This document shows positions 53,336 through 64,000 of a stretch of DNA of 64,000 bases, piece by piece. Made by a program: the position numbers and the translations under genes. The notes below the pieces were generated by a model that saw only the letters and a list, made by a program, of their open reading frames with translations, had not been told where the DNA came from and did no database searches. Source of the DNA: Terriglobia bacterium (GTDB lineage Bacteria; Acidobacteriota; Terriglobia; JAJPHL01; JAPKYU01); NCBI GenBank assembly GCA_965223005.1, contig CBDCVK010000005.1, positions 64,001 through 128,000 of the forward strand, in the 5' to 3' direction. The stretch's first letter is position 1, and every line of letters begins with the position of its first letter.

Positions 53336-54202
53336 ATGGGGAAGCTAGGAGTTATCACCGACGGCATCAGCCGCGAATTCGAACACGCACTCGAAGTCAT
53401 GAAGGAGTTCGGGCTGAGGTACGCCGAACTGCAGTTTCTCTGGGACAAGGAGGTTGGGGATCTCGACGACGCACAAATGGCGCGGGCGCAAAGCCTGATC
53501 GAACAGTACGAGATGGAGATCTGCTGCATATCTCGCCACAACTTCGCGGGGATGCTCGTGGGACAAACCGAGGTCGGCGACGAAGCCCACTCCCGTCACA
53601 TGGCGGCGCTCGGGCGTTGTATCGAAATGGCGAACGCGTTGAGCTGTGGCTTGGTTCGGATCATGAGCTTTCGCAAGGAGATGATCCTGTTCGGTTCCGG
53701 CGGCGCCGAGGTCTGGAACGTCAGCAACGGAGCCTGGGACAAGCTGAAGAGGTTGCTGGCGCCGGCCATCCGGCTCGCCGAGGACGCTGGAATCACTCTT
53801 GTCGTCGAGACGGGCAACAACGCGATGATCACCTCAGGCTACCTCGGCCGCAAGCTGGTCGACGAGATGGGCAGCAACCATTTGAAAATTCTCTGGGACC
53901 CGGGCAACAGTCTCTACTGCGCCGAGTCGGCCTATCCGGACGGATACGAAGCGCTGCGGGGGGGCTACTTCGGCCATTTGCACATCAAGGACTGTCGGGT
54001 GGACATTCCCAGGGCGACGGTCGAGCAATGCCGCTTCGGTGGGGGTCAGATGGCGCCGTACTTTGAAAACCTCGCGGCCGCTCTCGAGCGCGACGGCTAC
54101 GAGGGGGTGGTGTCGTTTGAGAGCGTTTATCGACCCGAAGGTAGAACGTTTGAGGATGGGTTCCGAGCGTCTTTTGAAAGGTTCAGCAGGATTTTCGGAT
54201 AG
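53336..54202 (+). CDS. Sugar phosphate isomerase/epimerase (xylose-isomerase-like TIM barrel)
   Basis: Metal-ligand motifs LVVET, WDPGN, HLHIKD and VSFE. Confidence 0.87.
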   Translation: MGKLGVITDGISREFEHALEVMKEFGLRYAELQFLWDKEVGDLDDAQMARAQSLIEQYEMEICCISRHNFAGMLVGQTEVGDEAHSRHMAALGRCIEMANALSCGLVRIMSFRKEMILFGSGGAEVWNVSNGAWDKLKRLLAPAIRLAEDAGITLVVETGNNAMITSGYLGRKLVDEMGSNHLKILWDPGNSLYCAESAYPDGYEALRGGYFGHLHIKDCRVDIPRATVEQCRFGGGQMAPYFENLAAALERDGYEGVVSFESVYRPEGRTFEDGFRASFERFSRIFG

Positions 54203-54212
54203 GAGGAATGGC

Positions 54213-55505
54213 ATGAGGAGGGTTCTCTCACGTTTCGGTTTGCTGGCAGTCTGTGCGTGGGCCGTCATTCTCCCGGCCCAGCAACTGAAGGAGCTTAACA
54301 GGGACATCAACTACGACGAGAGCAAGATTGTCCCCTACGACCTTCCGGCCCTGCTGATTTCGGCGGAAGGCAAGGCGATCAAGACGGCGGAAGAGTGGAG
54401 GCACGTGAGGCGTCCGCAGATCCTGTCTCTATTCTCGAATCTCGTTTATGGGCGCGTGCCTGTGCCTGCCGACCCGATCAAGACCGACTTCACGATCGAG
54501 GCCGTGGACCGGAACTTCATGGGCGGCAAGGCCGTTCGCAAACGGGTGTTGATTCGCTTTCGGAACCGACACGGCGAGTCGCGCATGACGGTTCTGGTCT
54601 TTGTACCGACGCAGAAGAAAAAGCCCGCCCCCGCCTTCATGATTCTGAACTTCATTAATCACGAACACGAATTGCTCGAGGTCGATCCGAGCAATCCGAC
54701 GATGCTCAGAATCGGTTTGCCTCTCGGGGAGATTTTGGACCGCGGGTACGCCTTCGTGTCGGTCTATCATGCGGACCTTGTCGCGAACAACGAAGTCGAC
54801 TTCCAACGCGGCCTCTATTGGAGGTTCTTCCACCCCGAGGAAACAGGCCCCCCCAAGGAGGCCATCCATCGGTTGTTCTACAAGGAAGGGCAGAGTTTCC
54901 CCAATGCGGGCGAGTGGGGCGTGCTAGCCGCCTGCGGATGGGGAGCGATGCGCGCACTGGACTACCTCGAGACTGATGACGAGGTCGATCACACCCGGAC
55001 GTTGCTGATGGGCCATTCCAAGCTGGGCAAGGCGGCGCTGTGGGCCGCCGCGCAGGACGAGCGTTTCGCCCTGGCCATCTCCGTTCAATCCGGGTGCGCC
55101 GGAGCAGCGCTCTGGCGCCGGAGAATCGGCGAGACGCTCCAGAAGATGAGCAGCCGCTTCCCATATTGGCTCTGCGAGAACGCACGGAAGTTCGTCAATC
55201 GCGAAGACGATTTGCCCGTCGACCAACACATGTTGCTGGCGTTGATGGCTCCGCGGCCGGTTTACGTCGCAAGCGCGGTGGAGGATGGTTGGGCCGACCC
55301 GCGAGGAGAGTATTTGTCCGCGTACCACGCGAGCGAGGTATATCGGCTCTTAGGAAAGAGGGGCCTGGAGTCGGAAGCGTCTCCCCAGCCCGAGCAACCG
55401 ATCATCGAGAGTGAGGTCGGATACCACATTCGCCGCGGCGGTCATACGATCAAGCTCTACGACTGGCGCCGCTTTCTGGATTTCGCGGATCATCATCTGA
55501 GATAG
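54213..55505 (+). CDS. Secreted CE15-like (glucuronoyl esterase-type) alpha/beta hydrolase
   Basis: NYDESK, WGAMRALDYL, nucleophile motif GHSKLGK, SGCAGAAL, LPVDQH, WADPRGE and GYHIRRGGH. Start ATG 54213 after AGGAGG. Confidence 0.85.
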   Translation: MRRVLSRFGLLAVCAWAVILPAQQLKELNRDINYDESKIVPYDLPALLISAEGKAIKTAEEWRHVRRPQILSLFSNLVYGRVPVPADPIKTDFTIEAVDRNFMGGKAVRKRVLIRFRNRHGESRMTVLVFVPTQKKKPAPAFMILNFINHEHELLEVDPSNPTMLRIGLPLGEILDRGYAFVSVYHADLVANNEVDFQRGLYWRFFHPEETGPPKEAIHRLFYKEGQSFPNAGEWGVLAACGWGAMRALDYLETDDEVDHTRTLLMGHSKLGKAALWAAAQDERFALAISVQSGCAGAALWRRRIGETLQKMSSRFPYWLCENARKFVNREDDLPVDQHMLLALMAPRPVYVASAVEDGWADPRGEYLSAYHASEVYRLLGKRGLESEASPQPEQPIIESEVGYHIRRGGHTIKLYDWRRFLDFADHHLR

Positions 55506-55674
55506 ACTGGCGAAACGGCCCACATCCCGCCTGAAGCTTCCAGCCGAAGGGCTGGACTTCGTTCACGACCCCATCCCGGTCCAGGCGGACGTGGTCGCGC
55601 ATCTCGTCCTGTTTGGAGAAATCCACAATGGCCATGTGCCTCTCGGGTTTGAGCGCCCTGCGGAGGCTGTCCAT
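55506..55674 (-). pseudogene. 3' remnant of a class I SAM methyltransferase
   Basis: SLRRALKP..HMAIVDF....HVRL....V.NEV...GWKL matches the C-terminal part of the fold; the SAM-binding N-terminal half is missing. Confidence 0.55.
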
Positions 55675-55700
55675 TCACTTGTCGTCTAGTTTTATTTGTT

Positions 55701-55964
55701 TCAAAGGTGGGAGTCGGAACAAGCCGCATTTGCCCTTCGCAGATGGACAGCTTGGTGGCAACTGGTGCAGAGAGTGATCAGATTTTGCTCAGCATCATCT
55801 CCTAGCCTGCTTCGTGACTGAATGTGGTGCACCTGGAGTTCAGCAATTCGTCCGCAGTACTGGCAGCGCCAACCGTCGCGCTCTAACACGTGCCGGCAAA
55901 GGCGGCGGTAAGATTCCGAGTTAAGCCGGAACCGGGGACGCCTGGGAAACGCTGGAGTCATCAA
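55701..55964 (-). CDS. HNH endonuclease
   Basis: VLERDGWRCQYCG....VHHI........D...NLITLCTSCH; ATGA overlap with the upstream gene. Confidence 0.92.
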   Translation of the reverse strand: MMTPAFPRRPRFRLNSESYRRLCRHVLERDGWRCQYCGRIAELQVHHIQSRSRLGDDAEQNLITLCTSCHQAVHLRRANAACSDSHL

Positions 55965-56695
55965 GCTACTCTTGCCTGCTCCAGAAACTTTTCCCTCTGG
56001 GGAAGCGGCAAGAACTCAAACAGGTGACACAGAGAGAAAAGCAGAGCGTTCGGGTTGCCCTTCTCTAGGTTGGCGCCTGACAGAAAGTCGGCGCAGATCA
56101 TCTCCAAGCAGTAACCACGGGATTTGTTTGTCCCGAGCATCAGGGCAGCTGTCTCCAGGGCCTGCTCCACTACCGGCAGCTGGCTCTTGTACAGCTTGAA
56201 GTAGATCAGTTCCCAAGGCTCGGTTTCCTTTCCGTTCAGATGGCGCTCAACCTCCCGTTTGAATTCTTCTTTTGGCAGGGAGTGCGCTTTGTGCAACCAG
56301 GTTGCACAATCGAACCCCTGCCTCTCCGAGCGGGCCACCTTGACCAACTCTGCCGCCTTGCTCCAGCCCACCTGCTTCAACTCCCGCTTCACCGTTTTTG
56401 GCAGGTGCTCGTGGATCGCCATCAGGTAATAGGCCTTGCGCCTGGATTCGGGGAAGCGCTTCTCTAGGAACTCGTCGAAGCAGCTGAGTTTGTCGAGCCG
56501 CCAGTACTGGCCGGTGCGGACCTCGCACAGGTAGCGACCCAAATCGACAAAGCGGCTGTCCCGCTCGCGCTCCATGCTCTGCTCCCAGGCTAGGATCACG
56601 TCGATCTTGGCCAACACGAACAGCGCCCGGCGGCGGTTCAGCTTCGGTGGCTCTAGCGACTGTCCGTTAGCCCTCAAGTTGGTCAAGCCATGCAA
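55961..56695 (-). CDS. Hypothetical helical protein, apparently a separate gene ancestrally and now in frame with the upstream nuclease
   Basis: C-terminal ~240 aa of ORF 55961..57580. Possible own TTG start at 56695 (GGAGG 9 nt upstream) or 56686. Confidence 0.65.
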   Translation of the reverse strand: MHGLTNLRANGQSLEPPKLNRRRALFVLAKIDVILAWEQSMERERDSRFVDLGRYLCEVRTGQYWRLDKLSCFDEFLEKRFPESRRKAYYLMAIHEHLPKTVKRELKQVGWSKAAELVKVARSERQGFDCATWLHKAHSLPKEEFKREVERHLNGKETEPWELIYFKLYKSQLPVVEQALETAALMLGTNKSRGYCLEMICADFLSGANLEKGNPNALLFSLCHLFEFLPLPQREKFLEQARVA

Positions 56696-57478
56696 GGTCG
56701 CTGGCCTCCGGTCTGCGGTGGAGCCGGGCCTGAACCAGCTCCGGGCGGTCCGGTGGAGGCCACCAAGCCCCAGGTAGGAGCAGCTGAGGCAGCCGTTCTG
56801 GGGGAAGCGGATGCCGCTGTGAGGTAGGAAGTGGGCAGTCTCGATCTGGCCGATGCTCTGTTGGACCAACTGCGAGAACTCCTGGCGTTGCTCTTCGCGG
56901 ATCGAAGTCCGCAGGTACTGGATTTCGGGCAGGCGTTTACGAACGAACACTATCAGGGCGACTTCAGCCATACCGCTGACCCAGGAGTAGCAGACCAGCT
57001 GTGGGTCAAGTGCCAGCAGGCCCTCGGGTTCCTCCGGGTAGCGGCTGCTGGTGGTTTTCCACTCGATCAAGCAGCGTGTGCTGTCCAGATACCCGAGGGC
57101 ATCGATATAGGCAACGAAGTCGTTCCCATTCGTAAGTTGCCGCCCTAGCTTGGCCTGCAGGTTGCGGCGAGGCTGGCGAATGCGGATGCGGTCATCCTGA
57201 GCGAACCGTTCCAGCAGCTGCACGCCCTGCCGGACCATTCGGTCCCAGCTATCGCCACTGGCGTATTCCAGAGGGGTTTCGCGATAGGCTTCCCACTCTT
57301 CGAATAGGACTGCAACGCTGTCCTCGCGGCGGAAATAAGCCGCCAGGGCCTTCTCAAATACCCGCCCGAACAGCATGCTGGCCCGGGTCTCCTTCTCCCG
57401 CCAGCCGTCCAGATAGCGGTGGCGGTAGCGACGAGGGCAGCCCAGGTAATGGCTGATCTGGGTGTAGCTATAGGTCAT
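56667..57478 (-). CDS. Cas4/RecB(AddB)-like PD-(D/E)XK exonuclease with a frameshifted 3' end
   Basis: YSYTQI..YLGCPRRY, YID, IEWKT, QLVCY and CLSC. The expected last Cys and a natural-looking tail are disrupted or out of frame. Start ATG 57478. Confidence 0.85.
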
Positions 57479-57911
57479 CGCTCTTATCCACGTCCTCACT
57501 GCTACCCACGGTGACAGCAGAAAGTTCCACCCACTCTTCCGCCGGGGCAAATCCATCCAGGTTGAGGTAGGAACGACCATTCACGTTAGCGTGTGAGACC
57601 TTGACTACGCCCCGAAGGCCCATGAGAGCTTTCTCGTCGACCACGTCCTGGCCCAACAGTTCAGCGTCGTAGCCAAAGTCCTTCAGAAACCAGTTCAGCT
57701 TCCACAGGGCCTTGGCGGTACAGTAGAGCCGCCCGGACAGCGTCCTTCCGGCAAGCTCCTCGGGCTCGAGAATAGTCAAGCGAAGAGCAAAGAAGGGCTT
57801 CTGTGGATGGTAGCGGTAGAACACTCGCCCGATCTCGACCAGGAAAATCCCGTCCGGGATGTGATCTCCGTTCCGTGCCTCCTGGTGCAGGCCTGGGATG
57901 TGACGTTTCAT
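57468..57911 (-). CDS. Hypothetical protein, DUF669/phage-SSB-like
   Basis: IPDGIFLVEI start, beta-rich core, ALWKL..FLKDFG helix and acidic tail; position between the SSAP and the exonuclease. Confidence 0.55.
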   Translation of the reverse strand: MKRHIPGLHQEARNGDHIPDGIFLVEIGRVFYRYHPQKPFFALRLTILEPEELAGRTLSGRLYCTAKALWKLNWFLKDFGYDAELLGQDVVDEKALMGLRGVVKVSHANVNGRSYLNLDGFAPAEEWVELSAVTVGSSEDVDKSDDL

Positions 57912-58690
57912 GACTTAGCCTCCTGGGGCCGGGCGTAGCTGTTGAGTTGGCAGAGCAACCCGGCTCGGTCCTTGGTAGCCCGTTCAGCGAGGTTGTTAAT
58001 GAAAGCCTCGACCTGCTCCGGGGTGGCGGCGCGGAGATTCTCGGTTCCGCAAAAGTCAGCGGCGTAGAGTTTGACCAGGGTGGGGTCGAGTCGGTGCTGG
58101 CGGATCAACTGGCACAGCCGGTCGCGCAGCCGTGGGCGGCCATTCCTAGACACCGTTTGCGCTGCTGCCACAGGAGTTTTCGTGGACACACGGCCGGGCT
58201 CGATCTGAGAGGAGGAGGATCCGAGTTCCTCCACCGAGCACAGGCCGATGCCATAGGCCTTTCGTAGAGCCCGGTTGACGGCCCGGGTCTCGGCCATTCG
58301 CATCTCAGCCCCGCGGACAAGGTCAGAAACGTTGGAGGGATCGGCATCCCCGTAGCCGACGAACCCCCGGGAGCCAGGAGATTTATAGACCGTGGCCTTG
58401 AACACCCACCGGCTGGCGGCTGGGTCGCAGAACTCGCGCACCGGCTGGACTCGGATGCCCGAGCAACGATTGCGGTCGGCCAAGCGCAGGAGGCCAGCAT
58501 GGGTGACATACCAACGACCATCCAGAAAATGAACTTCACCCACTGCCACTGAAAATAGATACCGGGTGGTAAGTCTTTCTAGCCCTTCGCCCTGAACTTT
58601 GCCGATTCGGCCAGGCCAAAGCTGCCTGGCCAGCCGCAGATTCTTCCTAAACTGCGCTTGGCTTTGGGAACTCCTTGATCTCATATGCAT
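57908..58690 (-). CDS. Putative single-strand annealing protein (Rad52/Sak-like)
   Basis: YVTHAGLLRLA, WVFKATV, FVGYGDA and MAETRAVNRALRKAYGIG..SVEEL pattern typical of phage annealases. Start is 58690 or 58684. Confidence 0.65.
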   Translation of the reverse strand: MHMRSRSSQSQAQFRKNLRLARQLWPGRIGKVQGEGLERLTTRYLFSVAVGEVHFLDGRWYVTHAGLLRLADRNRCSGIRVQPVREFCDPAASRWVFKATVYKSPGSRGFVGYGDADPSNVSDLVRGAEMRMAETRAVNRALRKAYGIGLCSVEELGSSSSQIEPGRVSTKTPVAAAQTVSRNGRPRLRDRLCQLIRQHRLDPTLVKLYAADFCGTENLRAATPEQVEAFINNLAERATKDRAGLLCQLNSYARPQEAKS

Positions 58691-58691
58691 T

Positions 58692-58777
58692 TCTATTACT
58701 ATCTATTACAATAGCATACATTTCCCATCTGGCTTGTCAAGAGATTTATTGGCAGGATGAAGAGTTCCTCTTACAAT
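58692..58777. promoter_or_regulatory. Back-to-back sigma70-type promoters with tandem TCTATTAC boxes
   Basis: Minus strand TTGACA (58735-58740)-N16-TATGCT; plus strand TTGGCA (58749)-N17-TACAAT (58772); TCTATTAC at 58692 and 58702; AT-rich. Confidence 0.6.
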
Positions 58778-58786
58778 CATCAACCG

Positions 58787-58987
58787 ATGAAGAAAGATGC
58801 TCTCCTGGCGTTTCGAATTCCGGCTGGTCTGAAGAAAGGTTTGCAGGACGTGGCGAAGCGCGAAGCGCGAAGCATCTCGCAAGTATGCGAGATGTTACTG
58901 ACTCTTGGGGTAGAGGCCTACGAAAACGAGGGTCCCAAATACGTCCAGCGCTTCCTCACCCAACGGCGACCGAGGTCGACGGACTAG
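58787..58987 (+). CDS. Ribbon-helix-helix transcriptional regulator
   Basis: LAFRIPAGLKKGLQDVAKREARSISQVCEMLL (beta-alpha-alpha pattern). Start ATG 58787. Confidence 0.8.
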   Translation: MKKDALLAFRIPAGLKKGLQDVAKREARSISQVCEMLLTLGVEAYENEGPKYVQRFLTQRRPRSTD

Positions 58988-59170
58988 TAGAGAAATAGCA
59001 GATCAGGGAACCTGCCGGCTCGCAGAGTCTAGCCAGACCGGCGAAATCGACCGCGCCCACCATTCGTTGTTGCCTTGACTCTCACCATCACAGGATGTAG
59101 TATAGCGAAACAAAGGCGAAGTAGAGAGAGAGAGGCGATTGTCCTCCCGTGCAACCGGAATGCATAGCGG

Positions 59171-59247
59171 AAAACTACAAAACGAACTCTTCGCCGTTCG
59201 CAGGTAACTGTCTGATTGTAATAGGAATACTTGGCTTTGGAAAGGTT
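59171..59247 (+). repeat. ~77-bp imperfect direct repeat, copy A
   Basis: Identical 19-mer AAAACTACAAAACGAACTC, then GTAACTgTcTGATT, TAATA and AAGGTT shared with 60267-60344. Confidence 0.9.
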
Positions 59248-59256
59248 GAATGAGCA

Positions 59257-60210
59257 ATGTCAAACACAGGCCCCAAGGACGCAGAAACCCCACATACAGA
59301 AGCTACCGCTGGGGGAACGGGACGGAAGAAAGCTGGCACGCTGGCTCTCACAGTCCATGGAGCGACCGGCCCAAGGACTAAGCGGGGGAAACGGAAGTCG
59401 CGCTCTAACGCAGTCAGGCACGGTATCTTCGCCGTAGGGTTTCTCCGTGGGCGGGAGTCACGTGCTGAATACAACGCCCTCGTCAATGACTTGGCCGATT
59501 CGTTGCAGCCTGTCGGAAAGATCGAGGAGATCCTGGTCGAAAAACTGGCAATGACACTGTGGCGCCATCGGCGTGTGTTGCAGGCCGAGGCGGCAGAGAT
59601 CGCCAGAGAAACCTACACCATCGAGGATGAGGAATTGAACGGTGGAGCGATCAGCAGGAAAACGCCGGTCGGGAACCTCGGCTTGATTAAGGGGGCCATG
59701 GCCACCCATGACGAAGTCAGTCTTGCGGCAGCCGCTCTTCTCCTTGAAAAGCTCCGGGACCAAATTCGGGAGAAGGGACTTGACTGGGAGCGCGACCGAA
59801 ACACGCTGAAATCTGTGTACGGCACGCAATCAGCACGTGAGGGGCTCGATGAGGATCCCCTCGGCGAATTGGCGGATAAGTACCGCGAGATTGCTCTATC
59901 GGGAAAAGCGCAGGGTGCAGCGGCCGAATGCAAGGGGGAATTTACTGAGTTGATTGTCGGCTTGGTCGAGGAGGAGATCCAGCGGCTGGAGCAACTCTTC
60001 GATGAATGGAACAGCCGCGCTATGGAGCGCCTCAAATTGCAAAAAACTACCGTCTTGGTCCCACAGCAGCAAGTGGCGGATCGCCTGCTGCGCTACGAAG
60101 GAGCTCTGGATCGGGCTTTCGACCGCACGCTCGCCCAACTGGAGCGGCTGCAGCGCCTGCGGTCGGGACAACCAACTCCACCGCCACTCAACATCAATGT
60201 ATCTCGATAG
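59257..60210 (+). CDS. Uncharacterised protein of the (S)TGPRT-x-GK-x-NA-x-(K/R)HG ... LLRYE type
   Basis: 317-aa ORF with HGATGPRTKRGKRKSRSNAVRHG, PVGKIEEILVEKLA..LWR.RR and LLRYEGALDRAFDRTLAQLERLQ. Confidence 0.85.
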   Translation: MSNTGPKDAETPHTEATAGGTGRKKAGTLALTVHGATGPRTKRGKRKSRSNAVRHGIFAVGFLRGRESRAEYNALVNDLADSLQPVGKIEEILVEKLAMTLWRHRRVLQAEAAEIARETYTIEDEELNGGAISRKTPVGNLGLIKGAMATHDEVSLAAAALLLEKLRDQIREKGLDWERDRNTLKSVYGTQSAREGLDEDPLGELADKYREIALSGKAQGAAAECKGEFTELIVGLVEEEIQRLEQLFDEWNSRAMERLKLQKTTVLVPQQQVADRLLRYEGALDRAFDRTLAQLERLQRLRSGQPTPPPLNINVSR

Positions 60211-60266
60211 GGTAGAGGATTCCCCTGTATGGTTCCACTAGCGCTTTCGGAGACATGGCTAAGGGC

Positions 60267-60344
60267 AAAACTACAAAACGAACTCCTCCGCAGATAGCAC
60301 GTAACTATTTGATTTTAATATGACTAGTAGCCTCGGACAAGGTT
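60267..60344 (+). repeat. ~78-bp imperfect direct repeat, copy B
   Basis: Same 19-mer as copy A; TAACTATTTGATT is an exact match to the IHF consensus YAANNNNTTGATW. Confidence 0.9.
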
Positions 60345-60391
60345 CGGTCGGGGCGGCACATTCCGCTCTTACGTGGGCCATTGTTCAACAC

Positions 60392-60429
60392 GAAGCTGCT
60401 TTCTTCCTCATGAAGCTGCTTTCTTCCTC
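60392..60429 (+). repeat. Perfect 18-bp tandem duplication separated by AT
   Basis: GAAGCTGCTTTCTTCCTC-AT-GAAGCTGCTTTCTTCCTC. Confidence 0.9.
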
Positions 60430-60596
60430 GGCCTCAGCCCGGTGAGGATTGAGAACATTCCTCCACCTTAGCCTCAGACTTGCCGCCCCCGGCTTCGAGG
60501 TACACGGCGTAATGTGGGAGCAGGCGCGAGCACTTGAGCGGGTGGGCGCCACCAGGGCGCATTTCTCGGCTAGTGGTGCTGTCGGCTAAACCACGC

Positions 60597-60638
60597 ACAA
60601 AAAAACACTTGACACAAGAAATTATACTATCCTATTAT
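60597..60638 (+). promoter_or_regulatory. Sigma70-type promoter of the TonB-dependent receptor
   Basis: A-tract, then TTGACA (60609-60614)-N18-TATTAT (60633-60638); RBS GAGGAG before ATG 60690. Confidence 0.6.
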
Positions 60639-60689
60639 TCCTCCAGTTTTGGGCGGAAAGTCTAGCTTACGAACAGAGGAGTTTTGGTC

Positions 60690-63600
60690 ATGAGGAAGAG
60701 CCTGTCTTTTGGCTTGGTTTTTGTGTTGGCATTCGCGCTGAACTTGCAGGCACAGGGTGAGCGCGGAACGATTCGGGGAACAGTGCTGGATCCCACGGGA
60801 GCGGCTGTCCCCGGAGCCACAGTCACAGTCACCAACATTACCACGGGCGTCGCCTTATCAACGACGACCAGCGGCTCCGGCCTTTACAACGTTTCGAACC
60901 TGCGGCCGGAAACCTACATCGTGGCGGTGGAGCTGTCCGGCTTCAAGCGCGCGGTGCAAGACGGCGTCGAAGTCAATGTGGCTGCTGTGGTGGGCTTAGA
61001 CTTCACGCTGGAACTGGGCGCGGTGGCCGAAAGCGTGGAAGTGACGGCGGCGGCGCCACAACTGAGAACCGAAACCACCGAGATCGGGACCGTCATTCCT
61101 CAAGTCGTGTTGACAGATCTCCCTCTGGCGGTTGGAGGCGGCGGCCGGTCTCCGCTTCAATTCATTTTCCTGACGCCGGGCGCCTCTTCGGGCGGCACCT
61201 CTGCCCCTGACGGGAGTAGCAGTTCGCAGATTGGTAGTACCTTCTTCCAAAGAATGAATGGTGGCCAGGTCTTTTCGATGGAAATGAACTTGGACGGCCT
61301 GAGTATGCAAGCGGGGGTGTGGGTCAATACCGGCCGGGAATTGAGCTTCGCGCCGGAAGCGATTCAGGAAGCTTCCATGGCGGAAGGCACCAGCACGGCG
61401 GAGACCAGCTCCGGTGGTGGTATGGCACGTTTCACCACAAGGTCCGGAACCAATGAGTTTCACGGCAACCTGTATGAATTCTGGCGCAACGACTACTTCG
61501 ACGCGAGCGGTTTCTTCAATGCAACGCCCCCGAAGCGGCGCTGGAACGAGTATGGATTTAGTATAGGCGGCCCTATCCTTAAAGATAGGCTCTTCTTCTT
61601 TGTGAATCAGAACTGGTTCCGACGCAAGGATGCCGGAGGGAGCGATTTTCTTTCGGTGCCAACTGCCGCCGTCAAGGGTGGCGATCTTTCTGTGCTGCTG
61701 GGGGCTGAAATCGCGCCTGGCGTCCGGGAGAACCAGATCTACGATCCGTTAACCACCCGCACGGTGGGAACCGACATCGTACGCGACCCGTTTCCCGGCA
61801 ACATCATCCCATCGGACCGGATCAGTCCCATATCGCGGAGCATCAATGGCTTTCTCGCCAGTCCAACGAGTGCGGGCGAGTTCAACAATTTCCTGTCTGT
61901 GTCCGAGCCGAGGCAGCAATTCTATAAAAACACCTTTAGAATCGATTATCGGGTTACCCAAAGTCACAGCGTCTTCTTCATGAGCAATCTGTCTCCCCGG
62001 GATGCTATGGACATAAGTGCCATCCCCTTCCCGCACGGCCAGAACCGAACGGGGGGTTCCCACAATAGGAACATTCGGACCGCCTGGGACTATGTGCTCT
62101 CGCCGACGGTGACCAATCATTTGGCGGGCGGTTTCAATCAGAACCCTGAGACGTACTTCATCGTGGGCCATGGAGACGGGTGGTCTGAGACTCTGGGCTT
62201 CGGCAGGCGCGGCGAGCAGGGGCAGGCGCCCTTCACCGGCCTCCATGACGGCGCGTTTCCCGACATCACCTTTGGGGCTGGAAGCTATAGCCGAATTAGC
62301 GGCTCCGGGGGCTCGATCGATACGAACACGCAGTTTTTTCAAAACATCTGGGTTTTTTCGGACACTCTGACGGTGCTTCGCGGCAAGCACAACATCAAGA
62401 TCGGTATGGACTTCCGCTCCATCCACGTGGACCAGTTTTCGGCTCCCAGCAACGGACGTTTTACTTTTGAGCGGACCCAGAGTGGACAACCTGGGCTGGC
62501 CGCAACGGGCCATTCTTGGGGGAGCTTCTTGTTGGGTGATGTCAACACGGCTGGGCTGCTGGACCCGGCATTTAATCCCGGCGGACTATCGAAGTCTCGG
62601 GTCAATATGTTGGGATTATATTTCCAGGATGACATCAAGATCACCCCGACCTTCACTCTGAACCTGGGTCTGCGGTGGGATGCCTTCACCCCCATGCGCG
62701 ATGTGAATGATAACTGGTCGGTGCTGGATCTCAACCTGCCCAATCCTGGCGCCGGGGGACGACCTGGTGCGCTGGCGTTTGCCGGTCAAGGCCCGGGACG
62801 CATTGGAAAGAGCCGTGTGCCGGGCGCGGATAAGGTGGATATGACCAACTTTGCTCCGCGCATCGGGATCGCCTGGAGGTTTGCGCCGAGCACGGTACTT
62901 CGGGCCGGATACGGGGTCCACTACTTTGGGACGATGATCCACATGGCCGGCAACCTGCGGCGCTCGGGGTTAGGCTTTGAGGCCCTTCCCAGTTTCATAT
63001 CGCCCGATGCCGGCCTCTCGCCTGCTTACAACTGGAGCGATCCCGCGAATCTGGGATTTCCAAACTATGCCCGGCCTCCGCTTATTGATCCGGCCTTCGC
63101 CAATGGCAGCCGCGCCTGGGAGTTTCACGATACCGACAAAATACCTTATAGGCAGGAATGGAGCTTCAATGTTCAGCATCAGTTGCCCGGCAACTGGCTC
63201 GTCGACGTCGCCTATGTGGGCAACAAGGGAACGCGGCTGACGAGCGGTGTGTTTAATCAAAACCAGCTCAATCCGAGCTTCCTCGGGCTGGGGAGCGACC
63301 TCGGCCTGAGCTTTCAAAACGACGCTGCGGCTATCGGGGCTCTCGGCTTTTCGCCTCCGTACGCAGGATTCGAGGGCACCCTGGGCCAGTCCTTGCGGCC
63401 TTTCCCGCAGTACTCCCTGGTCGGGACCGTTGGGGACATCGGCGGGGACTCGATTGACGCGGTTGGCATCGGAAACTCAACTTTCCACTCATTCCAAGCA
63501 AAGGTCGAGAGACGCCTCACGGGGGGCCTATACCTGCTGAGTTCGTTCCGCTGGTCCAAGATGATAACCGACTCGGATTCCAATTGGGGCGCCTTCTGGT

Positions 63601-64000
63601 CGCCACGGTCTCGCGACTTCTATAACCGGCAACTGGAAAAGGCGCTTGCGCCTTCCGACATCGCGGCGCGATGGGTCACGGCGTTCATGTATGAATTGCC
63701 GTTCGGTCCTGGAAAGCTGCTAGGCGGCGGGACGACCGGCGCTACGGCCAAGGTGCTAGGCGGCTGGCAGCTCACCGGGGCCCTGACCTACCAGACGGGA
63801 AATCCGATCCAGGTGATTGCCCCCAATCTCGTGGGCCTGTTTACTCGCCGCCAACTTCCCAACGTGGTTTCGGGAATAGATCAGCACGGGATCTCCAGCG
63901 GTTTCGACCCCGGCATCGGTCTCGCGGAGGCATCACGCGACAAATTCCTCAACGCATCTGCTTTTGAGAACCCCGAACCCTTTACCTTCGGAAACGGGCC
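60690..64000 (+). CDS. TonB-dependent receptor (Oar-like) with N-terminal carboxypeptidase-regulatory-like domain; runs off the window end
   Basis: Absent from the ORF track, consistent with no stop in the window. Hand translation gives MRKSLSFGLVFVLAFALNLQAQGERGTIRGTVLDPTGAAVPGATVTVTN, and later SGTNEFHG, YFQDDIK..TLNLGLRWD and NFAPRIGIAW. Confidence 0.92.
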   Translation, partial: MRKSLSFGLVFVLAFALNLQAQGERGTIRGTVLDPTGAAVPGATVTVTNITTGVALSTTTSGSGLYNVSNLRPETYIVAVELSGFKRAVQDGVEVNVAAVVGLDFTLELGAVAESVEVTAAAPQLRTETTEIGTVIPQVVLTDLPLAVGGGGRSPLQFIFLTPGASSGGTSAPDGSSSSQIGSTFFQRMNGGQVFSMEMNLDGLSMQAGVWVNTGRELSFAPEAIQEASMAEGTSTAETSSGGGMARFTTRSGTNEFHGNLYEFWRNDYFDASGFFNATPPKRRWNEYGFSIGGPILKDRLFFFVNQNWFRRKDAGGSDFLSVPTAAVKGGDLSVLLGAEIAPGVRENQIYDPLTTRTVGTDIVRDPFPGNIIPSDRISPISRSINGFLASPTSAGEFNNFLSVSEPRQQFYKNTFRIDYRVTQSHSVFFMSNLSPRDAMDISAIPFPHGQNRTGGSHNRNIRTAWDYVLSPTVTNHLAGGFNQNPETYFIVGHGDGWSETLGFGRRGEQGQAPFTGLHDGAFPDITFGAGSYSRISGSGGSIDTNTQFFQNIWVFSDTLTVLRGKHNIKIGMDFRSIHVDQFSAPSNGRFTFERTQSGQPGLAATGHSWGSFLLGDVNTAGLLDPAFNPGGLSKSRVNMLGLYFQDDIKITPTFTLNLGLRWDAFTPMRDVNDNWSVLDLNLPNPGAGGRPGALAFAGQGPGRIGKSRVPGADKVDMTNFAPRIGIAWRFAPSTVLRAGYGVHYFGTMIHMAGNLRRSGLGFEALPSFISPDAGLSPAYNWSDPANLGFPNYARPPLIDPAFANGSRAWEFHDTDKIPYRQEWSFNVQHQLPGNWLVDVAYVGNKGTRLTSGVFNQNQLNPSFLGLGSDLGLSFQNDAAAIGALGFSPPYAGFEGTLGQSLRPFPQYSLVGTVGDIGGDSIDAVGIGNSTFHSFQAKVERRLTGGLYLLSSFRWSKMITDSDSNWGAFWSPRSRDFYNRQLEKALAPSDIAARWVTAFMYELPFGPGKLLGGGTTGATAKVLGGWQLTGALTYQTGNPIQVIAPNLVGLFTRRQLPNVVSGIDQHGISSGFDPGIGLAEASRDKFLNASAFENPEPFTFGNG

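Follow-up and report, generated by a model that had tools for sequence, protein, structure and literature searches.

A conserved 18-nt DNA box beside genes of an unnamed protein family in Terriglobia: a possible gene-and-repeat partnership

A 64,000-nucleotide stretch of DNA from a Terriglobia bacterium (positions 64,001 to 128,000 of contig CBDCVK010000005.1; hereafter the window) contains a gene for a 317-aa protein that lies between two direct repeats, which raises the question of whether the repeats belong to the gene, to the DNA around it, or to neither. The flanking repeats of ~77 bp that had been described there were recovered by blastn (59171-59247 against 60267-60344, 77% identity over 78 nt) and by a repeat search (27 nt of 89% identity at a spacing of 1096 nt); the gap between copy A and the ATG is 9 nt, and 56 nt separate the stop from copy B. 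The 19-bp core said to be identical in the two copies was confirmed as an exact 19-mer, AAAACTACAAAACGAACTC, at 59171-59189 and 60267-60285. With up to three mismatches allowed, these two were the only matches that the window contained, whereas 100 shuffles predict 0.01, and the whole genome yielded three core matches versus none for a reversed control; both results count in favour of a partnership between gene and repeat. A degenerate third core had been placed at 59106, where the CRAAACRAAC pattern does not match, copies A and B being its sole matches; a third core (copy C, one mismatch) is at window-equivalent position 65757, just past the window end and ~5.5 kb downstream. Homology of all three genomic copies begins at the same core nucleotide, and their three left flanks are unrelated, which also counts for a partnership. 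A minus-strand terminator-like hairpin (59201-59182) is confined to copy A. The coordinates of the features are collected in Table 1.

Table 1. Features of the window discussed in the text (positions are those of the window).
Feature	Position	Strand	Basis or remarks
HNH endonuclease gene, 86 aa	55701..55964	-	PF01844, E 3.7e-13; PHROG HNH families
PD-(D/E)XK (Cas4-like) nuclease gene with C-terminal extension, 539 aa	55961..57580	-	PF12705, E 1.6e-14; PHROG exonuclease, phrog_17202
p147, conserved island gene, no assigned function	57468..57911	-	no family match
p260, conserved island gene	57908..58690	-	phrog_22961 (function unknown), E 1e-7
Arc/ribbon-helix-helix-like repressor gene, 76 aa	58757..58987	+	phrog_3431, E 5e-7; weak TraM match
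Sigma-70-like promoter candidate upstream of box A	59075..59103	+	TTGACT-17-TAGTAT, 9/12 matches, consensus match only
Box copy A	59171..59247	+	19-bp core (59171-59189), 15-nt variable spacer, then GTAACT... box
ORF, 317 aa	59257..60210	+	all-helical model; family without a name
Box copy B and rest of segment X	60267..60408	+	X common to copy C
20-nt tandem duplication	60381..60420	+	where segment X meets the receptor's native upstream sequence; single in copy C
TonB-dependent-receptor-like outer-membrane barrel gene	60684..64000, runs off window	+	PF25183, E 2.7e-172; PF13620; PF00593

The protein itself could not be assigned to a named family. Searches of Pfam, NCBIfam, PHROG and PADLOC returned no family (and no PADLOC defence family), and the sole match of a profile search of the PDB, a 39-residue similarity to an annexin, was rejected as spurious. 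A Foldseek search of the PDB and BFVD with the structural model gave no match at E ≤ 0.001, which counts against a partnership, and the model contains no recognisable DNA-binding or catalytic fold. The RHG and RY residues had been proposed as catalytic positions; such a role remains speculation because no recombinase fold was found. Two stretches of the protein are conserved, a basic N-terminal motif (TGPRT..GK..S..NA.KHGIF) and a C-terminal helix (RYE..L.R.FDRTL.QLERLQR). A search of the ESM Atlas returned unnamed clusters only, and the superfamily comprises 30,228 clusters at 50% identity (E ≤ 0.001), in agreement with the earlier description of a large, often multi-copy and uncharacterised family.

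Homologous loci, whose proteins are merely 35-55% identical, were searched with a model of the repeat. On comparison of these sequences, the core emerges as an 18-nt DNA box, AAAYTRCAAAACGAACYY, that is conserved and specific in its orientation, with an information content of ~1-2 bits at each of the 18 positions and ~0 in the flanks. The model matched copy A at E 0.007 and found the box in 75 of 118 loci, with 81 of the 84 matches on the strand of the gene. The core is thus constrained and recurs beside homologues, as had been suspected, and the recurrence counts for a partnership; the 43 of 118 family loci with no box within the locus sequence examined count against one. The box usually lies downstream of the stop (15-430 nt after it in 54 of 117 loci) and sometimes upstream, as in the closest relatives (L104, L105, L106, L108, L109 and L047), where it is 60-250 nt before the ATG. 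Most copies carry a second, weaker half-site, TTAGC or GTAAC, at a fixed distance after the box. In seven distant members the reading frame runs through the box, which encodes KLQNEP at the C-terminus, and this again favours a partnership. A seemingly covarying RNA hairpin after the box (GCTAAGT-N15-ACTTAGC) was considered and rejected: RNAalifold, given 55 instances, predicted 0 pairs, and in the proposed stem 53.9% of cells are paired versus 55.2% in shuffles. Rfam covariance models had no match at the box in 13 loci (E ≤ 1). Literature searches found no such repeat described in Acidobacteria, and a search for the motif string retrieved only unrelated primers.

The box is also dispersed in some genomes. 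In a 301-genome sample of the class, 18 genomes carry at least four copies of the 13-mer core, and up to 33. Every one of the 18 has a family match (17 of 17 if the unpublished genome G101 is left out), compared with a base rate of 114 in 301 from a search that scored at most seven candidates per genome; this counts for a partnership, with the association at genome level confounded by phylogeny, since the family occurs in 81 of the 96 genomes of families f6 and f7. Genomes G007 and G033 hold 1-2 family genes and 27-33 boxes. In G033, 12 of 13 sampled boxes are inside a 300-500-bp dispersed repeat, a further point for a partnership, and most of the printed copies have, by eye, an inverted box-like sequence ~100 nt downstream. 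Two observations on the immediate relatives count against it: the family gene is single-copy in the window's own genome, alongside only three boxes, and relatives of the same genus or family carry neither element (protein family in 0 of 6; core in 0 of 3 within the genus).

A different arrangement is seen in genome G023, in which 36 stand-alone family genes form discrete units with island genes nearby in 0 of 36. Among ten paralogue pairs, chosen by their similar protein ends, eight are 90-97% identical over 636-945 bp, and in six of the ten the similarity extends only 2-3 nt beyond the ORF; units of this kind count for a partnership. Neither a target-site duplication nor a terminal inverted repeat was found at the ends of these units or at the window copy. 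The 36 copies are mostly without a box (one clearly box-like sequence and two weak ones), which counts against a partnership.

The right-hand repeat proved not to be private to the ORF. The core of copy B makes up the first 19 bp of a 4.1-kb duplication (60268-64341 versus 65758-69815, 87.7% identity) that includes the upstream region and the TonB-receptor gene, the first of two paralogues. Copies B and C are 95-100% identical over 60273-60870, except for the 15-nt spacer and the 20-nt duplication. In the same-genus genome G001, segment X is missing upstream of the orthologous receptor gene, where homology starts only at 60409. Box C would have arisen when the right end of the island was duplicated together with the adjoining receptor gene. 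Inside the TonB gene, 63247-63285 resembles the core plus the copy C spacer, as a pseudo-target or by coincidence.

On its left the gene adjoins a conserved and in some genomes multi-copy phage-like island of ~4.9 kb with the order HNH, Cas4-like nuclease, p147, p260 and Arc-like repressor, of which the 317-aa ORF is an optional last gene. HNH, the leftmost recognisable island gene, has homologues in 10 of 117 related loci, the nuclease in 27, p147 in 24 (50-66% identical and always between nuclease and p260) and p260 in 40. The p260 protein, which may be a Rad52-like annealing protein, had no match among PDB sequences. The repressor gene diverges from the nuclease operon, with sigma-70-like divergent sites at 58713-58777, and its homologues are found upstream of the family gene in 19 of the 117 loci. 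No integrase, capsid or terminase gene lies within the 4.9 kb. Homology of the left flank to G001 ends at 55522; in that genome part of the island (55741-58497, 87% identical) sits elsewhere and the two flanks are on different contigs, a rearrangement that leaves no empty site with a single repeat in G001 for comparison with the window.

In genome G064 the island is present 12 times (88-93% identity over 2.7-2.8 kb) and the nuclease ~12 times. Six of the 12 islands carry a box; four of these six are without a family gene, and further copies are scattered off the islands (L210-L215). The link that had been drawn between the protein and its flanking repeat is plausible. The occurrence of the box without an adjacent family gene counts against a partnership, since the box could then belong to the island or to another factor.

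The best explanation for these observations, which we hold tentatively, is a partnership of protein and repeat comparable to that of a transposase and its MITEs, or of a RAYT and its REPINs. Recognition of the box would fall, probably, to the invariant basic N-terminal domain of the protein, and the protein would recombine or duplicate DNA bounded by boxes, or control these processes; the 1.1-kb unit may itself be mobile. In Terriglobia-type Acidobacteriota of soils the box accompanies the 317-aa family and a small phage-like mobile island, and it has become a dispersed repeat in some of the genomes. In the window the gene is flanked by box A, which belongs to the island, and by a second box, B, which lies where the island ends on the right.

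A somewhat unlikely alternative is that the box belongs to the island as a subterminal cis site, which might be one of its ends, serve in packaging or as an origin, or be the target of its nuclease and annealing machinery, and that the 317-aa gene is unrelated cargo which tends to sit beside that end, the bracket having come from cargo insertion next to a box. The box-bearing G064 islands that lack the ORF fit such a site, as does the position of the box in that genome, 260-900 nt to the right of the repressor gene and right before unrelated genes. Gene orders also look permuted, with the ORF followed by HNH and nuclease in L119, the order box, ORF, nuclease, HNH in L108, and the box to the left of the nuclease in L138, and, judged by their tail lengths, several long metagenome contigs run only ~60-450 nt beyond the gene. 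However, loci such as L047, L062, L064, L104 and L109 have the box beside a family gene with no island gene within at least 2.4 kb, and this counts for the partnership instead. The in-frame box of the distant family genes, the dispersed G033 and G064 copies away from island genes and the island-free family units of G023 also speak against a site that belongs to the island.

It is likewise unlikely that the box is a promoter or operator element, for instance the -35 region of a promoter that is ECF-type or specific to the element, or else the sequence to which the Arc-like repressor binds. The ORF would then be driven or controlled from copy A, B and C would lie upstream of the receptors, and the 'repeat' would be two sites of one regulon. 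In L104 and L106 a Shine-Dalgarno-like sequence follows the box, which sits 62-63 nt ahead of the ATG, GAAC and GTTA/GTAA are, by eye, a promoter-like 15-17 nt apart in the window's clade, co-oriented genes lie downstream of copies A, B and C alike, and a repressor gene is adjacent in 19 loci. However, at most loci the box comes after the gene and the next gene is convergent (for example L053, L055, L057 and L081; L189 and L192 in G064). The receptor has a sigma-70-like site of its own (60609-60638, 11/12 matches) 340 nt downstream of box B, and its G001 orthologue is without the box segment. Inverted pairs and 27-33 copies would be unusual for such a regulon. Sigma-54 and sigma-70 readings of the box were rejected on inspection, since the spacing does not fit; box A, moreover, is downstream of a promoter-like site and would be in the 5' leader if the candidate at 59075..59103 is used. 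Were the box a mere promoter or operator, it would be a useful regulatory motif and otherwise an ordinary finding.

A bolder form of the partnership is doubtful. In it, the 317-aa superfamily would supply a new class of bacterial mobile DNA with its trans-acting protein for DNA recognition or recombination. Single-gene units, represented by the 36 sharp-ended G023 copies, would mobilise both themselves and box-only repeats of the MITE/REPIN type, and the fold would be unrelated to the DDE, HUH, serine and tyrosine enzymes.

In the original prediction, A and B are the attL/attR-type ends of a 1.1-kb cassette that can be excised or amplified and that the encoded protein recombines with the help of IHF; this now appears very improbable. 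The identical 19-bp core in direct orientation fits such a cassette, as do two further independent elements with a box on both sides of the gene (the L170 group and L176, with spacings of 1498 and 1393 nt), but the core is all that the paired boxes of these two share. Including the window, only three independent elements are two-sided, and an upstream/downstream repeat of >10 bp above background was found around the gene in 0 of 20 homologous loci, so that bracketing by repeats is not a feature of the family. The IHF box was present as reported, with an exact consensus (WATCAANNNNTTR) in copy B at 60302-60314 on the minus strand, the sole one in the 64 kb, and one mismatch in copy A; it is also found in copy C. 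Its conservation and significance did not hold up, however: the match is absent in the close relatives L047, L105, L108 and L109, and 0.52 are expected per window by chance, with at least one in 43 of 100 shuffles. The att-site layout of core plus IHF site was not borne out. The neighbours of the gene are nucleases and a repressor, with no tyrosine or serine recombinase in or beside the unit, and copy B is common to copy C within a much longer duplication. When Logan contigs of four runs were aligned to 54000-62000, one contig spanned 58476-60753 intact, and the predicted 1096-bp circle or deletion joint was not found in these assembled contigs, where rare forms drop out; terminal overlap (15-200 nt) was seen in 0 of 51 whole metagenome contigs carrying the gene. 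Taken with the spread of the box, this suggests a gene-plus-repeat partnership rather than a private excisable cassette.

A one-off local duplication or chance similarity without function would be in keeping with the three copies in this genome and with the closer resemblance of A and B to each other (77% over 78 nt) than to boxes elsewhere, but it is refuted by the same 18-mer in dozens of unrelated contigs with strong strand bias and by its multi-copy state in 18 of 301 genomes.

The tentative partnership can be compared with several known systems. One of them is that of REP sequences and REP-associated tyrosine transposases (REPIN-RAYT; PMC3116915, PMC3337134). In common with these systems, a short conserved sequence lies on either side of a protein gene, of which there are one or a few, and recurs across the genome, one gene faces many repeats (1-2 genes to 27-33 boxes in G007 and G033), and inverted doublets ~100 nt apart occur in G033. 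The flanking copies here are direct; the genome of the window has only three copies in all, and relatives have up to 33. RAYTs are small HUH/Y1 enzymes, whereas the window protein has 317 aa, is all-helical and shows no HUH motif or fold match. In further contrast to REPIN-RAYT systems, the box is not palindromic, the window copies are direct, the copy numbers are far below those of typical REP families, and the distribution is patchy, the genus itself having none elsewhere.

Insertion sequences with their MITEs, especially insertion sequences without inverted ends in which the ORF reaches the end of the element, resemble the ~0.9-kb, single-gene, sharp-ended units of G023 (36 copies), where homology ends 2-3 nt past the ORF and box-only repeats exist elsewhere. 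Unlike insertion sequences, the ORF has no DDE, DEDD, HUH, serine or tyrosine transposase family or fold, target-site duplications and terminal inverted repeats were seen at neither the window copy nor the G023 units, and the gene is single-copy in the window's genome; the repeat search also returned no inverted repeat around the ORF. An integron cassette shares the single ORF between two direct, recombination-site-like repeats, usually after the ORF and on the same strand, but the R''/L''-L'/R' paired structure of attC is absent (0 pairs by RNAalifold), no integrase was found among the neighbours scanned, and arrays were not seen. The island recalls a phage recombination module (an exonuclease and annealing protein with an Arc/Cro-type repressor) in its PD-(D/E)XK exonuclease, HNH nuclease and divergent Arc-like repressor; it differs in having no integrase, capsid or terminase in 4.9 kb and in reaching 12 copies in one genome.

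The mobile DNA of Acidobacteria has been little studied. One outcome is the description of a small phage-like island, present in 12 copies in one genome, in which neither an integrase nor a transposase could be recognised. If the pairing of protein and box is real, an unnamed superfamily of 30,228 clusters would be tied to a defined 18-nt DNA element, which would open proteins now listed only as 'hypothetical' to direct experiment, and a gene-and-repeat system in Acidobacteria would join the short bacterial list that includes IS/MITE and RAYT/REPIN.

Two exact copies, A and B, of the 19-mer AAAACTACAAAACGAACTC (the core) lie 1096 nt apart on either side of an uncharacterized ORF, with 9 nt between the end of copy A and the ATG and 56 nt between the stop codon and the start of copy B, all as the original prediction described. 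A repeat search of the window returned a 27-nt pair at this spacing with 89% identity, and blastn carried the similarity to ~78 nt at 77% identity (59171-59247 against 60267-60344). Besides these copies, the 64-kb window contained no core match with up to three mismatches (0.01 expected from shuffles). A degenerate third core proposed at 59106 was rejected, as it falls outside the predicted pattern, which fits copies A and B alone. The genome-wide count did yield a third core, copy C (locus L003), with one mismatch, 5.5 kb downstream and just past the window edge. The proposed IHF consensus WATCAANNNNTTR has a single match in the window, exact, at 60302-60314 on the minus strand within copy B, and such a match is at chance level, with 0.52 expected per window and at least one in 43 of 100 shuffles.

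Core copies and genes of the island in and beside the window
Feature	Position	Strand	Size	Remark
HNH endonuclease				first in island order, upstream of ORF
PD-(D/E)XK Cas4-like nuclease			539 aa	second in island order
p147			147 aa	third in island order
p260			260 aa	fourth in island order; phrog_22961
Arc-like repressor			76 aa	last before ORF; divergent from preceding island genes
Core, copy A	59171-59189		19 bp	
ORF	59257-60210	+ (gene strand)	317 aa	
Core, copy B	60267-60285		19 bp	
Core, copy C	65757 (start)			beyond window

The ORF matched no Pfam, NCBIfam, PHROG or PADLOC family. A word-indexed search returned 378 relatives of its protein, all unnamed or 'hypothetical' and none with a Pfam domain, and when 1.84 billion cluster representatives were searched in full with a profile, the superfamily came to 30,228 clusters at E <= 0.001, of which 15,258 remained at E <= 1e-10 and 1,126 at E <= 1e-30; the original prediction had likewise described such proteins as common hypotheticals. 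The closest ESM Atlas clusters were unnamed and came from Acidobacteriota, Actinomycetota and Pseudomonadota. With the single ORF protein as query, the family was matched in 17 of 61 relatives and in none of the six genomes from the window's own taxonomic family. Aligning 26 members revealed two conserved parts: an N-terminal motif (TGPRT..GK..S..NA.KHGIF, then ES..EY...LQP.G..EE.LVEKLA..WR.RR...AE.AEI) and a C-terminal helix (LDRLLRYE..L.R.FDRTL.QLERLQR.R.GQP.PP). The AlphaFold2 model (mean pLDDT 73) has nine helices and no sheet. Foldseek searches of PDB and BFVD with this model gave no match at E <= 0.001, and therefore no recombinase, transposase or nuclease fold was recognizable; the top rows (E > 0.03) were pore-forming helical bundles and coiled coils. 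As catalytic positions, RHG and RY are candidates only.

The flanks of family genes were compared at 37 genome loci titled MAGs of Acidobacteriota or Terriglobia, one Verrucomicrobiia MAG and 80 metagenome loci. A profile of the conserved 18-nt form of the core (the box) matched at 75 of 118 loci, the window included, with 81 of 84 matches on the gene's strand; AAAYTRCAAAACGAACYY, allowing up to three mismatches, was found on that strand 15-430 nt past the stop codon at 54 of 117 loci. Information content over 85 distinct instances was ~1-2 bits at each of the 18 positions and ~0 in the flanks. The box is real, conserved and strand-specific, and it is genetically linked to a very large unnamed protein family. 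Directly 3' of it stands a weaker TAAGT, and an ACTTAGC-like half-site follows at a distance of 25 nt from the box; for the clade that includes the window, the half-site is GTTAGC or GTAACT and the distance 14-15 nt. The consensus of the two half-sites is an inverted repeat, which compensatory changes do not maintain. An RNA stem formed by them was rejected (RNAalifold predicted 0 pairs, and pairing occurred in 53.9% of cells vs 55.2% in shuffles), and Rfam had no match at the box. Seven distant family members have the box in frame at the protein C-terminus, where it is read as KLQNEP...

The ORF is the last gene of a phage-like island. Homology to G001, a genome of the same genus, ends on the left at 55522, and the left neighbor is a glucuronyl-esterase-like housekeeping gene, which places the island at ~55.5-60.4 kb (55523-60408, ~4.9 kb). 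Some 140 bp at its left edge (55535-55673) match G001 twice and G003, also of this genus, once, at 82-88% identity. No integrase or transposase was found in the window's island. Wherever the flank is long enough, the same island genes, 50-75% identical, stand in the same order upstream of the family gene (p260 at 40, the nuclease at 27, p147 at 24, the repressor at 19 and HNH at 10 of 117 related loci); the order is permuted in a few loci (L119, L108, L138). Some genomes have several copies of the nuclease gene, with 19 matches in G062, and genome G064 holds 12 copies of a 2.7-2.8-kb unit of HNH, nuclease, p147 and p260 genes (L184-L195; 88-93% identical), followed on the right by variable sequence. 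A box is present in six of the 12, two with a family gene and four without; in these four it is found to the right of the repressor gene, at a distance of 260-900 nt, with unrelated genes beyond it. Hence the box marks the right end of this small island, multi-copy in some genomes, where the ORF is optional. These copies would suit an explanation that assigns the box to the island and takes the family gene for cargo; this we consider unlikely, if deserving of attention, with the island-free copies of the gene in genome G023, described below, on the other side.

That the box is a promoter or operator is likewise improbable. It lies upstream of the gene in the closest relatives of the window protein (L104, L105, L106, L108, L109, L047, L122), 62-63 nt 5' of the ATG in L104 and L106 with a Shine-Dalgarno-like sequence between, as such a role would have it. 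However, the box is often followed by a convergent gene (L053, L055, L057, L081) for an ordinary enzyme, and therefore it is not simply the next gene's promoter. In one subclade of metagenome loci (L129, L132, L135, L141, L163), a GC-rich, terminator-like hairpin with a T-run is found immediately 5' of the family gene's Shine-Dalgarno sequence and start codon.

The box has also spread as a dispersed repeat in genomes encoding the family. G064, with three family genes, has 15 box matches, 14 of them on one strand (reversed control, 1 + 1); by coordinate comparison nine lie inside island copies and the others in a 420-470-nt non-coding repeat elsewhere. Within the box-bearing repeat, a few hundred nt 3' of the box in four places, this genome carries a 1.7-1.8-kb element (L186 7031-8771, L187 7237-8977, L210 5498-7312, L211 4194-5864; 97-99% identical), as if the element targeted the repeat; it encodes a 494-aa ORF that in L069 carries DDE transposase domains. 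The 13-mer TRCAAAACGAACY was present at four or more copies in 18 genomes of a 301-genome class sample (33 in G007, 27 in G033, 15 in G268 and 10 in G188, among others); single matches are at chance level, since ~0.6 are expected per 5-Mb genome and reversed-control counts are similar. A family match was found in all 18 multi-copy genomes (17 of 17 without the unpublished G101) vs 114 of 301 overall, a tally that includes the unpublished G258 and G298 and scores at most seven candidates per genome; phylogeny confounds this association, given that 81 of the 96 genomes in families f6 and f7 encode the family. In G033, 12 of 13 sampled boxes lie within a 300-500-bp repeat, and most of the copies inspected have an inverted box-like GGCTTCGTTTTG ~100 nt after the box, i.e., an inverted doublet. 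At G229:C148:6454-6475 two copies of the 13-mer box core, one on each strand, overlap by TGCA to give a perfect palindrome.

Genome G023 (8.8 Mb) contains 36 matches to the N-terminal ~80 residues of the ORF protein, all distant family members (L009, L022, L084-L103, L196-L209), with no island gene within 1.5 kb of any of them. Ten paralog pairs were compared, picked for similar-looking protein ends: eight were 90-97% identical over 636-945 bp, homology ended 2-3 nt past the ORF in six of the ten, and in several it began 40-114 nt before the ORF. The copies represent discrete, duplicated single-gene units, and units of this sort with sharp ends exist in at least one genome. Fifteen of the 36 copies carry a GTCACGCGAGTTC-type motif at the left end, in most of these 155-256 nt before the conserved domain, and a clear box-like sequence accompanies only one of the 36. 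An Ala-Ala C-terminus (DNA end GCCGCNTAR) was seen in 16 of 22 proteins examined.

The original prediction proposed that the ORF and its repeats could be an excisable or amplifiable, att-type 1.1-kb cassette. The exact repeat pair is what such a cassette would have, and the core does recur beside homologs; however, bracketing is no family feature. The longest word shared by the 300-nt flanks on the two sides of the gene was 7-10 nt in 20 homologous loci, as in mismatched pairs, vs 19 nt in the window, and boxes on both sides were found only in the window, in the L170/L171/L178 element and in L176, the latter two having the core alone in common. One public-run contig covers 58476-60753 unchanged. 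Neither the expected 1096-bp circle junction nor any other joint skipping or returning across the unit was present over 54000-62000 in contigs of four public runs, from which rare forms drop out, and none of 51 whole metagenome contigs with a family gene had a terminal overlap. Such a cassette is very unlikely.

Self-comparison revealed that 60268-64341 is duplicated at 65758-69815, with 87.7% identity over 4.1 kb; the block comprises an upstream region and a TonB-dependent-receptor-like outer-membrane barrel gene (PF25183, PF13620, PF00593). Homology begins exactly at the core, so that copy B makes up the opening 19 bp of a long duplication. Identity between B and C is 95-100% over the first 600 bp and 70-95% in the receptor gene bodies, which suggests gene conversion or recent copying. 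Exceptions to the near-identity are the 15-nt spacer after the core (5-6 clustered differences) and GAAGCTGCTTTCTTCCTC, a 20-nt tandem duplication at 60381-60420 in B, single in C, where the segment common to both copies (60267-60408) joins the receptor's native upstream region. Contigs without these 20 nt map in two runs and may derive from copy C. On its left, copy C adjoins a 70-bp receptor-gene fragment 93% identical to 63194-63265, and together with the second receptor copy this occupies window-equivalent 65688-69815; three unrelated left flanks (the sequence 3' of the repressor gene, that 3' of the ORF and a fragment from within a receptor gene) therefore join the core at the same nucleotide. 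Inside the receptor gene itself, the sequence at 63247-63285 (AATCAAAACCAGCTCAATCCGAGCTTCCTCG) aligns with the core and spacer of copy C; this could be coincidence, or the site could act as a pseudo-target in box recombination. Upstream of the receptor ortholog in G001, homology starts only at window position 60409; the 140 bp with box B (60268-60408) are missing, and the core occurs in none of three same-genus genomes. The reading of the repeat as a functionless duplication is, with the box conserved at other loci, effectively refuted. The remaining probability falls to explanations outside those considered here.

The box, its linkage to the family, the island, the dispersal and the single-gene units together point, tentatively and with somewhat less than an even chance, to a partnership of family protein and box, like that of transposases with MITEs or RAYTs with REPINs. 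Gene-and-repeat partnerships of this kind are already known, and the ORF protein fits none of the enzyme families of their known drivers. The REP/RAYT side of the comparison draws on PMC3116915 and PMC3337134. Literature searches on the box found nothing, the motif string matching unrelated primers only and general searches returning empty. It is doubtful that protein and box represent a previously unrecognized mobile-DNA class. If they are partners, the basic N-terminal domain would be the likely reader of the box, and the box-gene-box arrangement of the window would have come from recombination or insertion at the box of the island's end rather than from a private duplication.
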